Shown here piece by piece: positions 39,578 to 46,220 of a DNA stretch of 64,000 bases (positions are counted from its first letter, which is position 1; the number at the start of each line of letters is the position of its first letter). The stretch comes from a virus (taxonomy: Duplodnaviria > Heunggongvirae > Uroviricota > Caudoviricetes), in IMG/VR virus record IMGVR_UViG_3300047388_000185, positions 128,738-192,737 of that record; one strand, given 5' to 3'. A program made the translations under genes and the position numbers. The notes beneath the pieces were generated by a model. It saw nothing but the letters and a program-made list of their open reading frames with translations. It was not told the origin of the DNA and did no database searches.

Positions 39578-39838
39578 ATGCCAAATGAATTAGAAATCGG
39601 AGTTACGTATGAGAGTCGAGAGGGAATTCTCTTCCAACGCCGAGATGGAAATAAGATTTATGACACCAAGAACGGACCTTACCAGCATTGTACCGATGGT
39701 TGGAATCGATTCATATCAGGCCCGTATGTAGGCATGTGGGTTGGCAGAGAACACGAATCCACTTACAAACGCCATACGATACTAACTCTCTTCGTAGAAC
39801 AAATGTCAGAACAACTGGATCTATTTGATGTTGACTGA
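39578..39838 (+). CDS. small protein with C-terminal EQLDLFDVD motif
   Basis: ends ...MSEQLDLFDVD*. Confidence 0.55.
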   Translation: MPNELEIGVTYESREGILFQRRDGNKIYDTKNGPYQHCTDGWNRFISGPYVGMWVGREHESTYKRHTILTLFVEQMSEQLDLFDVD

Positions 39839-40142
39839 AATCATCCCCGGACACCGATATCTTCGAGTCGACGGTGTCGAAGTAGAAGCCTATTGCGATG
39901 GCTCTGAAGATACGAATAGAATTGCAGTACGTCCCGTTAATCCCCGGGAGAACGATGGCCTATATCGCTGGATGAAATCTGGAACCCAGTGGAACAGTTT
40001 GAAAGGAAATCTCCTGGATAAAATTCCAGTGGCTGGCAGAACTCTTATGAGTGATATTATCGGAAAACGTCAGGATCACCTCCAACTCACTATTTGTCTA
40101 ACTACCCAACCAAAACAAGAACAACTGGACTTATTCGAATGA
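39825..40142 (+). CDS. small protein, paralog family C (EIIPG..Y.R.DG...YRWMKSG), C-terminal EQLDLFE
   Basis: shares its N-terminus and the RWMKSG core with the 40800 and 41116 ORFs. Confidence 0.55.
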   Translation: MMLTEIIPGHRYLRVDGVEVEAYCDGSEDTNRIAVRPVNPRENDGLYRWMKSGTQWNSLKGNLLDKIPVAGRTLMSDIIGKRQDHLQLTICLTTQPKQEQLDLFE

Positions 40143-40600
40143 CCGCAACAATGAGAATCGAATCTTTCACCGGACCTTACCGGTTTCTGAGCAACTTCGA
40201 GCCTTGTCCTATCTACTACGGGGGCATTCACTTCTACCACGTTGAAGGTGCATACGTAGCTGCTAAGACGCTTGATCTAGAACTGCGTAAAGAAATTGCA
40301 ACGATTGTTGAGGCAGGCAAAGTCAAACGTAAAGGTCGTCAGATCGAGCTATGTCCAGACTGGGAAGAAGAGAAGCTCTCAATCATGGAGTCCCTTCTTC
40401 GCCGTAAGTTTGAACAAGGAGGTGAGTTGGCCGAAAAACTTCTCGCCACGAATGACGCCGAGCTTATCGAAGGCAACTGGTGGGGCGATGTCTTCTGGGG
40501 TGTTTGCCGGGGTAAGGGTGAAAATCATCTCGGCAAGTTGTTGATGAAAATCAGAGAGGAATTGAGATGCGAAAACTTGAACTCGGAGTCCCCTATCTAA
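40139..40600 (+). CDS. NADAR-family protein (YbiA-like, ADP-ribose processing)
   Basis: RFLSNFEPCPIYYGGIHFYHVEGAYVAAK and GNWWGDVFWG...GENHLGKLLMKIR signatures; ATGA-coupled to the upstream ORF. Confidence 0.65.
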   Translation: MTATMRIESFTGPYRFLSNFEPCPIYYGGIHFYHVEGAYVAAKTLDLELRKEIATIVEAGKVKRKGRQIELCPDWEEEKLSIMESLLRRKFEQGGELAEKLLATNDAELIEGNWWGDVFWGVCRGKGENHLGKLLMKIREELRCENLNSESPI

Positions 40601-40800
40601 CGAAGGCGGGGAAGAGGGTCGAGGGGATCCAGATTAACTACGACTACATGCTATTCGATGACCAACTTTGTCGCTATATTGAAAGCAGTGGGCCTAGGGT
40701 TATTGGCCGATTGATTGATTCAGATCATAGGGAATTCAAGGAGGATTTGGATCCTTCTCAGTTCGAGTTGATTCAATTTTCTCAGCTGGAGTTGTTCTAA
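40567..40800 (+). CDS. small protein with C-terminal QLELF
   Basis: ends ...FSQLELF*. Confidence 0.5.
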   Translation: MRKLELGVPYLTKAGKRVEGIQINYDYMLFDDQLCRYIESSGPRVIGRLIDSDHREFKEDLDPSQFELIQFSQLELF

Positions 40801-41123
40801 TGCTTGATGAAATCATCCCCGGAGAACTATACCTTCGAGAAGATGGTGCCGTTTTACAGGCGCATCTTGACGGGGGAGAAAGCCTCAACTGTATCTCTTT
40901 CATGGACGTCGGAAGAGGTCAATCTGACGGCCGATATCGTTGGATGAAATCTGGCGTTCGTCCCGCAGAATGTCCTGGAAGCTGGGATAAAAACCCTATA
41001 GCCGGGACAGTTCCCAATAATGACGTTCGAAAAGAAAAAGGGATGCTTACTGGATTTGCTTTTATCGAGTGCGTTTCTAAGCCGAAATATCAACCGACGC
41101 AATTGGAGCTTTTTGATGTTTGA
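40800..41123 (+). CDS. small protein, paralog family C, C-terminal QLELFDV
   Basis: MLDEIIPGELYLREDG...RYRWMKSG. Confidence 0.55.
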   Translation: MLDEIIPGELYLREDGAVLQAHLDGGESLNCISFMDVGRGQSDGRYRWMKSGVRPAECPGSWDKNPIAGTVPNNDVRKEKGMLTGFAFIECVSKPKYQPTQLELFDV

Positions 41124-41463
41124 TGAAATCATCCCGGGAGCTATATATAAATGCCGTGATGGAAAACTCGTTCAGGCGTACCTTTGTCTCGAAAAGCCGG
41201 ATTATCAAGGTGGGGAACTTATTCTGGCTCAATATGTAAATGAGGCGGGGGAACCTACGGGAAAGGGCGATGACGGAGTCTATTGCTGGAGACGTAGTGG
41301 CCCGAAGCCTGATACTGTGTCGGCTAGTTGGAGAGATACTATGATTGCCGGTCACGTACCTAAAATTAAAAGTATCCCTGCAAATCTAGAAGCGGATAGG
41401 AGAGATCTAGTAGAATGTATCTCGCATCCTAGACGTCAATTAATTCAATTGGAGTTGTTTTAA
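41116..41463 (+). CDS. small protein, paralog family C, C-terminal QLELF
   Basis: MFDEIIPGAIYKCRDG...YCWRRSG; ATG 41116. Confidence 0.55.
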   Translation: MFDEIIPGAIYKCRDGKLVQAYLCLEKPDYQGGELILAQYVNEAGEPTGKGDDGVYCWRRSGPKPDTVSASWRDTMIAGHVPKIKSIPANLEADRRDLVECISHPRRQLIQLELF

Positions 41464-41717
41464 TGCTGCAAATTGACCTGAAAAAGCTAGCCGAAGACGC
41501 GCTCACAGCGGCGTACGAGAAAGGTCTTGGGGATCATAGTGAGGATCGAGAAGCCTGGACTTTAAGAGAGGCTGTTGCTAAAATAGCTAAGAAAGAGCTT
41601 CTCGACGGAGTCGAATGTTTGGATAAAGAAAATAAAAGGCTTCGAGCGAAGTTATCCAACGCCCAACAAGCAATAGAGGATATGGAGAATGACAAAGACT
41701 ATAAGTACGGCTACTAA
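41463..41717 (+). CDS. small coiled-coil protein
   Basis: 84-aa ORF. Confidence 0.4.
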   Translation: MLQIDLKKLAEDALTAAYEKGLGDHSEDREAWTLREAVAKIAKKELLDGVECLDKENKRLRAKLSNAQQAIEDMENDKDYKYGY

Positions 41718-42009
41718 GCAGCTAGATCTCTTTCCAGAAGCGCCGATCAAGCTGTCACCGCGAACGATCTATCTCGTTGGCATTGACACAGACAGCGCAG
41801 ACATCGACGTCATTCCTTTTTACGATAAGTACGACGCCCTGTCATATGCGCACCAGCAATTTGCTGAATATACAAAGGATTATGCTGACTACGCTGAAGT
41901 CCGAGAAGAGGGTGATCTATCTGTCTACGCAATCAAAGATGGGTGGTTATACACTGCAACTGATGGGGACGGGATTCATATCTGGGTCCGGGAGGTAAAG
42001 ATCAAATGA
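41689..42009 (+). CDS. small protein with N-terminal KQLDLFPE motif
   Basis: QLDLF lies near the N-terminus (residues 11-15). Confidence 0.45.
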   Translation: MTKTISTATKQLDLFPEAPIKLSPRTIYLVGIDTDSADIDVIPFYDKYDALSYAHQQFAEYTKDYADYAEVREEGDLSVYAIKDGWLYTATDGDGIHIWVREVKIK

Positions 42010-44784: not shown

Positions 44785-44805
44785 TTCCAATCCAAGGAGA
44801 ACTAT

Positions 44806-44994
44806 ATGAATTTGAAATACACCATCGGTGCTGTCGTCATCGGCCTGCTCTTCATCGGCGGAGCTTGGCTGTTCCAAGATGAAGGCACGACCTCGAAGAA
44901 CAACGCCCCACAGTCCAGCGGCGGTCAAGTCTACGACGCTCCGGCTCAAACACAAGCGCCGAAGAACAGCAGTTCTGGTGACGCCAACTTCTAG
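44806..44994 (+). CDS. small single-TM protein
   Basis: MNLKYTIGAVVIGLLFIGGAWLF... Confidence 0.4.
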   Translation: MNLKYTIGAVVIGLLFIGGAWLFQDEGTTSKNNAPQSSGGQVYDAPAQTQAPKNSSSGDANF

Positions 44995-45301
44995 GAAAGA
45001 CATGGTCAAACCGATTCATCCTTGGCCGAATCGACCTCATACAAACTCTCTACCCCCGGTCACTCCTGGAGCTCCCGGTGGGGAATGGGATCCGCCGGAA
45101 GGGGTCACAGATGTGGCTGTATTAATTCCCTACCAAGACCTCAAGGCGATGAAGTCGGTGCGAAAGGAAACGCACTTGGTCTTCTTCGAGGTCAAGGGAC
45201 TGGACGGCTCTTACATCCTTTCCTCCGACGGTTCCACCCGTCCTTACGGCGAAGGTCATTGACCAAGAAGGCTCAAGCCTTCTTTTTGATTAGGAAAATT
45301 A

Positions 45302-45571
45302 ATGTTGAATGACCTAGAAGTTGGACGACGTTATCTAACCAGGAATGGTAAGGAAGTCATGGTTTCTTCTACGTGCGACTGGGGTTTGGATTCGAAGGGG
45401 AGTGGAAGGTTATCCGTGGCATATTATCGTATAGATGGTTACGATCGATGTGTATTTGCAAATGGAAGAAATCGAGGAACTCCTACCTTCGACGATTTTA
45501 AAGACCCCAGGGATATCGTCTCTGAACTATATGTCTATGAACAAGAACAACTCGATCTATTCGGAGATTAG
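45302..45571 (+). CDS. small protein with C-terminal EQLDLFGD
   Basis: ends ...EQEQLDLFGD*. Confidence 0.5.
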   Translation: MLNDLEVGRRYLTRNGKEVMVSSTCDWGLDSKGSGRLSVAYYRIDGYDRCVFANGRNRGTPTFDDFKDPRDIVSELYVYEQEQLDLFGD

Positions 45572-45573
45572 AT

Positions 45574-45879
45574 ATGGCAAGACAACGACCTAACGGATTC
45601 GAACCCGGCGCTAGACTGGAAGTTGGTAACTGGTATCGAACTAAGGGGGATAACGTTATTCAAGTATTGACCGTGATGAAGTACACTACCCAAAGAGATA
45701 GTGATAGGGGTTGGGGACATGCTGAATGTAGTGATAACGTAACCCGGATCGTTGCAAACGAATATGTAGGCGCGTCTACCTGGGCTGATAAAATTATGGA
45801 TAGGTGTTTTATCTGTGAGTGCAATGCAGATGGCTCTGATCTAGGTACCTACAAACAAGAACAACTGAGCTTATTCTAA
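45574..45879 (+). CDS. small protein with C-terminal EQLSLF
   Basis: ends ...KQEQLSLF*. Confidence 0.5.
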   Translation: MARQRPNGFEPGARLEVGNWYRTKGDNVIQVLTVMKYTTQRDSDRGWGHAECSDNVTRIVANEYVGASTWADKIMDRCFICECNADGSDLGTYKQEQLSLF

Positions 45880-46220
45880 TGGCCAATATAATTACAACAA
45901 ACGAGGAATACCTTCAATTTCCGTGGAATAGTCCGGACGTTCTTATGGTCGGAAATACCTATGCCTATCGAGGTCACGGGATGCGGCCAGACGGTACTTA
46001 CGGGAACATCTTTATCCCCATAACTATCACAGGCAAGGCTAAGCGAGGTCTCTATGGGGAACGCGTAAGTTGTAGCGACGGCATCAACAGGTATTCTCAC
46101 GGTAATCAGCGCGGAAAAACTCGAGTTGATCAACACTCTAAAAACGTCTATTACTATCCCAACCCCAATTTCATTTCAGAAATGAAACCTCACGTTCAGC
46201 TTTCTCTCTTTGACTTTTAG
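45879..46220 (+). CDS. small protein with C-terminal VQLSLFDF
   Basis: ends ...PHVQLSLFDF*. Confidence 0.5.
   Translation: MANIITTNEEYLQFPWNSPDVLMVGNTYAYRGHGMRPDGTYGNIFIPITITGKAKRGLYGERVSCSDGINRYSHGNQRGKTRVDQHSKNVYYYPNPNFISEMKPHVQLSLFDF

Follow-up and report, generated by a model that had tools for sequence, protein, structure and literature searches.

The partner-binding pocket of the bacterial β-sliding clamp, DnaN, is a central replication hub and a known antibiotic target. Its ligands carry a clamp-binding motif (CBM), a pentamer of the form Q-φ-x-[L/M]-[F/L] whose best version is QL[SD]LF, with QLDLF the strongest; the motif typically lies in a protein tail, and its carriers include Pol III α, Pol II, Pol IV, Pol V, Hda and MutS (PMC11139829, cited in part). 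Our subject is a 64,000-nucleotide stretch of virus DNA (Caudoviricetes; positions 128,738 to 192,737 of IMG/VR record IMGVR_UViG_3300047388_000185), called the window below, in which 21 open reading frames (ORFs) end with this pentapeptide or a close variant. Canonical carriers share with these proteins the pentamer itself, its terminal or flexible placement and the acidic residues after it, but they are single host enzymes with catalytic roles at the fork (PMC11139829, in part), whereas here a single genome places it on as many as 21 small phage proteins that are not enzymes.

The motif and single DnaN-binding phage proteins are already known, MuC by its motif and Gp168 by the DNA channel. 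The C protein of phage Mu (MuC) is, like the proteins described here, small and phage-encoded. Its two CBMs, one N-terminal and one C-terminal, bind host DnaN, and the protein is lethal when overproduced, through loss of regulatory inactivation of DnaA (RIDA), whereas CBM mutants are not (PMC12867686, in part). Unlike the present proteins, MuC is a lone transcription activator, its phage depends on replication by the host, and there is no array. Gp168 of phage Twort and Gp240 of phage G1 are small Staphylococcus phage proteins that act on the host β-clamp and inhibit it; Gp168 differs in blocking the DNA channel and in being a single helical gene, and the cited portion of its description reports no QLxLF (PMC8565349). 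Inhibitors of the Gp168/Gp240 type are helical dimers that occupy the DNA channel; the two proteins modelled here are β-barrels, and Gp168 is not among the fold matches listed.

SocB of Caulobacter and RipA of S. pneumoniae disturb replication through the same DnaN pocket (PMC12795458, in part). They are chromosomal toxin-antitoxin single genes, and no antitoxin is apparent beside the ORFs of the window. In phage T4, gp33 and gp55 carry short terminal clamp-binding peptides that bind T4's own clamp, gp45, for late transcription. Use of its own clamp by T4 (PMC12867686, in part) sets it apart from the present phage, for which no gp45-like family was matched in the full record. Each published phage clamp binder that we met is encoded by one gene, and the inhibitor studied best avoids the pocket. 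The literature searched, which left supplementary tables and most subscription journals outside, contains no report of phage arrays of motif-ended proteins.

All six-frame ORFs of at least 30 amino acids (aa) in the whole 192,737-bp genome (n = 1959) were examined for Q[LF]x[LM][FW] no more than five residues from the stop. The pattern is matched by 22 ORFs, namely 21 plus-strand genes of the window and one 49-aa minus-strand ORF ending in QLLLW; the latter is the single match in the remaining 128.7 kb and was treated as chance. Twenty triplet-shuffled genomes gave zero to two matches each, with a mean of 0.3. In every one of the 21 window ORFs, Q[LF]xL[FW] lies at most three residues before the stop. 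Their endings are QLDLF (7), QLSLF (6), QLELF (4), QLSLW (2), QLCLF (1) and QFDLF (1). The exact consensus QL[SD]LF is therefore present in 13 of the 21 and QLxLF in 18, the deviating ends being QFDLF and the two QLSLW.

The motif-ended genes fall into several clusters, all on the plus strand. The first consists of four family A ORFs, three of which are intact: 1491..1808 (105 aa, ending in QLELF), 1805..2095 (96 aa, QLDLFE) and 2361..2630 (89 aa, QLDLFQ). The fourth, 2092..2361 (84 aa), had been counted with them in an earlier note on this DNA; in the record sequence, however, a stop at 2344-2346 replaces its Q codon, and the LDLF codons and a second stop follow. The window encodes five tRNAs (two Ser, Thr, Gln and Asn; 6782-6970, 12926-12999 and 61299-61458), none with a suppressor anticodon able to read the stop at 2344. 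Three B-type genes follow a DinG-like helicase gene, and all end in QLSLFD: 20583..20873 (96 aa, predicted small β-barrel), 20881..21156 (91 aa) and 21163..21441 (92 aa), the last of which was modelled and used in complex prediction. A poorly modelled ORF of ~291 aa with an uncertain start codon (26215..27090, QLDLFD) lies between the genes for a PD-(D/E)XK nuclease and the primase. Two group G ORFs at 53331..53705 (124 aa) and 53710..54090 (126 aa) both end in QLSLWD.

The largest cluster occupies 39578-46220, where 12 ORFs with the C-terminal motif, one with an N-terminal and one with an internal copy are interspersed with motif-less genes; the earlier estimate had been about 15. Six are of B/D type: 39578..39838 (86 aa, QLDLFDVD), 40567..40800 (77 aa, QLELF), 43419..43688 (89 aa, QFDLFD), 45302..45571 (89 aa, QLDLFGD), 45574..45879 (101 aa, QLSLF) and, only weakly alike, 45879..46220 (113 aa, QLSLFDF). 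Three belong to family C: 39828..40142 (104 aa, QLDLFE), 40800..41123 (107 aa, QLELFDV) and 41116..41463 (115 aa, QLELF). Group E contributes 42851..43123 (90 aa, QLDLFGD) and 43126..43410 (94 aa, QLCLFD), and, grouped by eye, 43700..43945 (81 aa, QLSLF). As proposed previously, the 106-aa ORF 41689..42009 carries its QLDLF N-terminally, at residue 11. The 136-aa ORF 42285..42695 is a doubtful member, with a SPOR-like match (E 4.6e-5), an internal QYDLF 22 residues from its end and an acidic tail. The carriers thus number 23 (21 C-terminal, one N-terminal and one internal), or 24 with the truncated copy, rather than the 25 or more first claimed.

The codons of the motif vary. All six Leu codons are used at positions 2 and 4, motif Ser is encoded by both TCN and AGC, and Phe by TTT in 9 cases and TTC in 10; third codon positions vary and first and second are constant. 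This free synonymous use indicates that the peptide is what is kept. Net acidity is found in 20 of the 21 motif-ended window proteins. Four tandem DUF6197 paralogues at 48079-49970 lack the tail, which is therefore not general to the paralogue arrays of this genome. The primase has QVSLL at residue 8, which we did not accept as a copy of the motif because it sits in what is probably the conserved start of the zinc-finger domain.

With the tails removed, the bodies form at least five groups without detectable kinship. Profiles of family A and the B/D type give an hhalign probability of 0.6% and no alignment, and the four ORFs of family A have no convincing link elsewhere. Families B and C and several unassigned ORFs have in common an N-terminal LE[IV]G..Y..R.G element (hhalign probability 57% for B/D against C), and family C has 23 invariant columns. 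The ORFs at 42851, 43126 and 43700, those at 53331 and 53710, and that at 26215 are separate groups, with no links at E<0.05 after tail removal. The tail is therefore common to the carriers and the bodies are not, in contrast to the single superfamily originally suggested. The LE[IV]G..Y..R.G element is a module common among phages: of 45 profile matches, 19 are proteins of 183-1703 aa that each match in several places, and all 19 lack the motif.

Two proteins were modelled for tail flexibility: the product of 21163 and a member of a second array, in a related virus record (G003), that is described below. The 21163 model is a small β-barrel with a predicted local distance difference test (pLDDT) score of 85.9, in which the body reaches 82-97 and the tail blocks 59-65. 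Its structural matches are to Tudor/SH3-like domains and are weak (Z 3.5, below the caution level of Z 8). The G003 model has an SH3/KOW-like fold (pLDDT 88, tail 54). It aligns with the KOW domain 5ohq (Z 7.7, root-mean-square deviation 3.0, 66 residues aligned) and with B. subtilis YorP (Z 7.2, deviation 2.9, 70 aligned), both again below Z 8. In both models the motif lies in a flexible, low-confidence tail, a placement expected of CBM ligands. The barrels of YorP and of NusG/Spt5 KOW domains are thus like the G003 array in fold and weakly like the B type of the window; a Z below 8 may reflect a common arrangement only, and there is no Pfam or PHROG membership.

Database searches assigned the bodies almost nowhere. 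PHROGs gave no match for 22 members and NCBIfam none for 10; Pfam, searched with 10 members, returned the SPOR match of 42285, weak matches for three others and nothing else. The PDB sequence search of members yielded nothing credible, and no fold in BFVD matched at E<0.001. In the ESM Atlas, 45302 led only to unnamed viral clusters and 26215 to no usable match. A resemblance by eye of group E (42851, 43126 and 43700) to RMF/CrpP was set aside, there being no NCBIfam or Pfam match at E up to 1. Searches of 50,697 GenBank phages by tblastn with 21163, 53331 and 43126 produced a single match at E 0.9.

The few homologues outside this genome retain the tail. Motif-free queries, which address a proposed check for tail-less relatives, found three outside homologues, and all three end in QLDLF or QLELF, a small sample that favors the proposal. 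Profiles that include the tail, and so bias the search towards the motif, recovered five outside homologues from one database, each of which carries the motif, and 17 outside single-domain matches from a second, all with a near-terminal Q[LM]xL[FL]. Family A was found in none of 33 candidates from viral contigs, and ORF 40800 in none of 496 from metagenome contigs.

The motif-plus-stop pattern was also run on 21 related virus records. One of these, G003 (IMGVR_UViG_3300019776_000919, 169,713 bp, complete), has 20 reverse-strand matches, compared with 0-4 per strand in the other 20. It contains an array of 14 tandem units of ~230 bp. Twelve are intact genes with a core of 74-86 aa that end in QLELF (10), QLGLF or QMELF; one unit has a stop ahead of its QLELF, and the last lacks the tail. 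The bodies of this array are neutral to basic. Its family is absent from the genome that holds the window (G000), and the B/D family of the window is absent from G003 in a search with G000 as positive control; the B/D-type and G003 profiles align in the tail only. Thus, the same peptide has been amplified on different bodies in two relatives. Two B/D-type genes ending in QLALF and QMSLF were found at another related locus (L095), and G001 and G003 each have one further motif-ended ORF.

A quick primase tree of 26 rows (L002, which is on the same contig as L005, and L015, L016, L020 and L026-L045 were left out) places the window in a group of eight rows with a Shimodaira-Hasegawa-like approximate likelihood ratio test (SH-aLRT) value of 100. 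In seven of these eight, the ORF just before the primase gene has a motif end: QLDLFD, QMDLFDDL, QLELF (three, one of them partial), QLKLF or QLEFNF. The bodies of these ORFs are barely alignable. The primases of the window and L092 share 84% identity, and yet the bodies of the two pre-primase ORFs reach only E 6e-4 in a seven-sequence comparison. The tails are nevertheless kept across phages of 36-50% G+C.

Small numbers of such genes are not rare. Tandem-motif scans of IMG/VR, in which first codons and spacing were fixed and sensitivity was low, gave 27, 0, 10 and 6 stretches. Among these stretches, at least three motif-ended ORFs occur only in G003; pairs occur at L062, L064, L074, L075 and L081, and the remaining stretches were dismissed as chance or internal matches. 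Because these pairs lie in five unrelated virus contigs, one or two motif-ended genes appear to be ordinary and a dozen or more unusual. Single in-frame DNA matches in other relatives were likewise discarded, since eight of 10 regions lack a motif-ended ORF of at least 30 aa and the other two look like shadow ORFs. At L062 444-903 (IMGVR_UViG_3300014204_000401, a 38-kb contig for which kinship was not shown), two tandem small ORFs that look SH3/KOW-like end in GGQLDLFDR and have no significant match to the G003 family. A 637-aa ORF at L060 1576-3489 has four internal QLDLF copies. In the similar high-G+C viral contigs L102, L104, L105 and L106, an 87-aa ORF starts with MQLDLF, an N-terminal placement like that of 41689.

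Several gene junctions in the window are alike at the DNA level (families D1, D4 and D18), a likeness that points to tails having spread through duplication, and through recombination where genes end. TGGA occurs in motif codons 2-3 of seven of the eight genes whose next start is no more than 2 nt away, compared with none of the 13 others (Fisher p 7e-5). Among Leu-Asp/Glu pairs the contrast is 7/7 versus 0/4 (p 0.003), against a genome background of 45%. Judging from this pattern, the motif codons double as a ribosome-binding-like site where the next start overlaps the tail, and this double use is probably why Glu is confined to overlapping genes and dominates the G003 array. Selection is therefore not purely on the peptide, contrary to what had been stated from the codon variation. 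Both observations would also be expected if a cassette of gene end and ribosome-binding site had been copied by recombination and the peptide were a by-product. However, third codon positions vary while the first two do not, 13 genes keep the peptide with no need for an embedded ribosome-binding site, and the tail is retained over the G+C range given above on unalignable bodies. The ribosome-binding constraint shapes two codons, the second and third, and not Q, L and F. As a sole cause, such hitch-hiking is largely refuted, and we regard it as very improbable.

Which pocket the tail fits is suggested by the motif itself. A QLSLF peptide binds E. coli DnaN at 0.64 μM and B. subtilis DnaN at 3.1 μM, and QLDLF- and QLELF-type peptides bind both clamps (bioRxiv 10.64898/2026.05.27.728225, in part). 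In complex prediction, the 21163 protein and E. coli DnaN, a stand-in for the host clamp, scored 0.48 compared with 0.00 for the best control, so that the complex prediction proposed earlier gave weak support. The mark is reached by 58 of 80 solved and two of 110 mismatched pairs, and scores of 0.60 or lower include only seven of the 80 solved pairs but both passing mismatches. Agreement between runs covers at least 97% of contacts, with a partner pLDDT of at least 69, and no interface is given. The score may reflect recall of solved CBM-clamp complexes.

The clamp reading is thus supported indirectly, by the consensus, the flexible end, retention in homologues, reuse in G003, the failure to find a phage clamp and the weak complex prediction. 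To that extent, the earlier identification of a canonical DnaN motif directed at the host clamp is partly borne out. Very probably, the tail binds host DnaN.

The tail might instead fit a different hydrophobic pocket, belonging to a protease, to some phage protein or to a divergent clamp encoded by the phage. The W variants, QFDLF and QLCLF do depart from the best binders. A phage-encoded clamp had also been offered as an alternative, and this gained no support: the clamp families PF00712, PF02916 and PF02768 have no match in G000 (PF02916 without a true positive control), and two of the three have none in G003. The family scans took in 75 larger ORFs and the first 25 families per scan, and a divergent clamp could escape them. 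Against another target, the consensus is exactly the DnaN pentamer, one clade member has the hexamer-like QLEFNF, and the N-terminal copy and the zero to three trailing residues are unlike a strictly terminal degron. Another target is accordingly improbable.

A promoter-like motif, TCAA[TC]-N14-18-TGGTATAA, occurs 22 times in the genome, always on the plus strand. Eleven copies are in the window, at 1122, 2624, 7478, 9961, 14039, 21443, 38551, 42245 (42245..42272), 48014, 52477 and 59990, and 11 more are outside; promoter function is putative. Copies precede three motif clusters (sites 1122, 38551, 42245 and 52477) and many replication-side genes, and a looser copy lies ahead of the polymerase. 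We infer that the motif genes are co-expressed with replication genes. The DNA that separates the 38551 site from ORF 39578 contains a terminator-like hairpin. A scan for σ70-type promoters in 38500-47500 was at chance level (13 versus 12.6). The phage has a sigma factor gene at 21840-22631 (minus strand), and the promoter-like motif is its candidate target.

The mechanism that we favor for these observations is competition for the clamp. The tail would be a genuine CBM aimed at host DnaN, and the small bodies would be interchangeable, fast-evolving carriers that offer it on a flexible end. The carriers would be made together, probably alongside the phage replication and nucleotide-metabolism genes. 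They would occupy the one pocket through which DnaN binds its partners and drive out Pol III, Hda and the enzymes of mismatch repair and translesion synthesis. Replication of the host would then stall, as would repair that depends on the clamp, while the phage copied itself with its own PolA and primase, both free of the motif; the three PolA pieces contain neither a pentamer nor a hexamer clamp motif. Many copies would provide dose and variety, and different bodies may make extra contacts with the clamps of different hosts or evade host surveillance. What we infer in this picture is that the tails bind, to what, when and with what inhibitory effect, and why there are so many copies. That competitive blockade of the pocket is the main purpose seems to us evenly balanced.

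Several points weigh against blockade. One strongly expressed gene would suffice for it, so competition alone leaves 21 genes unexplained. The bodies are conserved within families and may therefore have functions beyond carrying the tail. In two members the last motif residue is W, which lowers binding at position 5 (PMC11139829, in part). Each array contains one copy broken by a stop (2092 in the window, one unit in G003), L003 lacks the pre-primase ORF although it is a member of the primase clade, and the 18 rows outside the clade have no array or pre-primase motif by the pentamer pattern, which a hexamer would escape. Together these three observations indicate that phages of this group can do without the trait. 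Moreover, given the shared junction DNA and the double use of motif codons, part of the spread may be copying. Finally, the pocket was also the site first proposed for Gp168, which turned out to occupy the DNA channel (PMC8565349, in part), a warning against inferring mechanism.

Alternatively, the tail may dock each domain on DNA-loaded host clamps, where the domain would do its own job. Such a job could be to act on the host replisome, on a repair or defence protein or on RNA polymerase, or to link the phage replisome to the clamp. The bodies are folded in the models and conserved within families, SH3/KOW/Tudor-like barrels (at weak Z) are interaction modules, the pre-primase ORF is fixed in the replication operon in seven of eight clade rows, and the neutral-to-basic G003 bodies are compatible with nucleic-acid contact. 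MuC, too, employs its CBMs for transcription (PMC12867686, in part). However, wholly different bodies in the two arrays are odd for a specific adaptor, as is a pre-primase body that scarcely aligns even where the primases are 84% identical; nearly all window proteins are net acidic, and no catalytic family emerged from PHROGs, NCBIfam or Pfam. We consider tethering as the main purpose rather unlikely.

A third role would be counter-defence, in which decoys saturate or shield the clamp pocket against host systems that exploit or watch it, while an arms race diversifies the arrays. Accordion-like tandem arrays, rapid turnover and broken copies fit this idea, as do the host toxins SocB and RipA, which work via the same pocket (PMC12795458, in part). 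However, no linked defence system was identified, and no clamp-sensing anti-phage system was found in the literature searched. The binding predicted is the same as for blockade, and sequence cannot separate the two. By itself, counter-defence is a minor possibility. Tethering and counter-defence can each be combined with blockade.

A broader proposal is that the pentapeptide has repeatedly been grafted as a portable tag onto unrelated small domains, with arrays expanding independently in separate lineages of a clade of uncultured large phages. Diversifying clamp-docked effectors, in which every body contributes its own contact or activity, would then seize the replication hub in an arms race with clamp variants or clamp-watching defences. 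We hold this proposal as conceivable, though short of probable. If it is correct, it amounts to mass short-motif mimicry of one bacterial hub. A phage that devotes 21 genes to a pocket-binding motif, together with a relative whose separate array uses another fold, would represent hub mimicry at a new scale, by a five-residue tag that can be moved between folds and amplified. The arrays are surprising in scale and, on present comparisons, met twice independently, which suggests that these phages may crowd the host replication hub. Because the pocket is conserved, the carriers can be assayed in E. coli or B. subtilis with neither the phage nor its host at hand. The array genes are natural, folded, cell-expressed motif carriers, and their tails supply a simple annotation rule for featureless phage ORFs.

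The window is the last 64 kb of its record, which is classed as complete with direct terminal repeats. Sequencing runs with matching DNA are three soil metagenomes, one possibly the source of the phage; among the runs listed as matching there is no RNA run. A metagenome contig (X1) is identical to window 38600-41396, with 0 differences, and two others (X2 and X3) contribute short pieces. For replication the phage has genes for a primase, a DinG-like helicase and a PD-(D/E)XK nuclease, and its family A DNA polymerase is divided among three pieces. The polymerase occupies 34191-38557 as an ORF with uracil-DNA glycosylase-like and 3'-5' exonuclease parts followed by two PolA pieces, between which sits a 372-aa ORF. 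Family scans also identified RNA polymerase subunit domains, a sigma factor, ribonucleotide reductase, ThyX and dUTPase.

By primase, the nearest cultured relatives, at ~30% identity, are Vibrio phages D69, D148 and D181 and Salmonella phage Arash. Arash has similar replication genes and its own RNA polymerase (PMC10585845, in part), and its DNA polymerase is also annotated in separate pieces. Its genome (OQ632216) has no motif array, with 4 forward and 3 reverse matches compared with 10 and 7 in controls. A TerC-like gene was uninformative as a host indicator, with a single match at 46% (Dialister).

Further features of the genome lie apart from the motif genes. A 574-bp segment at the start of G000 (1-574) is repeated in mid-genome at 98507-99080 with 99% identity and contains 167-bp inverted repeats (35-201 and 358-524); the last 318 bases of the window are a copy of G000 1-318. 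This repeat could be a true duplication of an origin or of a packaging element, a boundary that inverts, or a product of assembly. Family matches to ThiF, Prok-E2_D and Prok-JAB at G000 37292-43309, made for the scanned set rather than mapped per gene, point to a ubiquitin-like conjugation module. A scan of 36 ORFs of G000 gave matches to a reverse transcriptase (RVT_1, E 1.8e-22), two SNF2 helicases, TerC, PhoH and an RNA ligase, and the ORFs of the window include a Thg1 tRNA-His guanylyltransferase.

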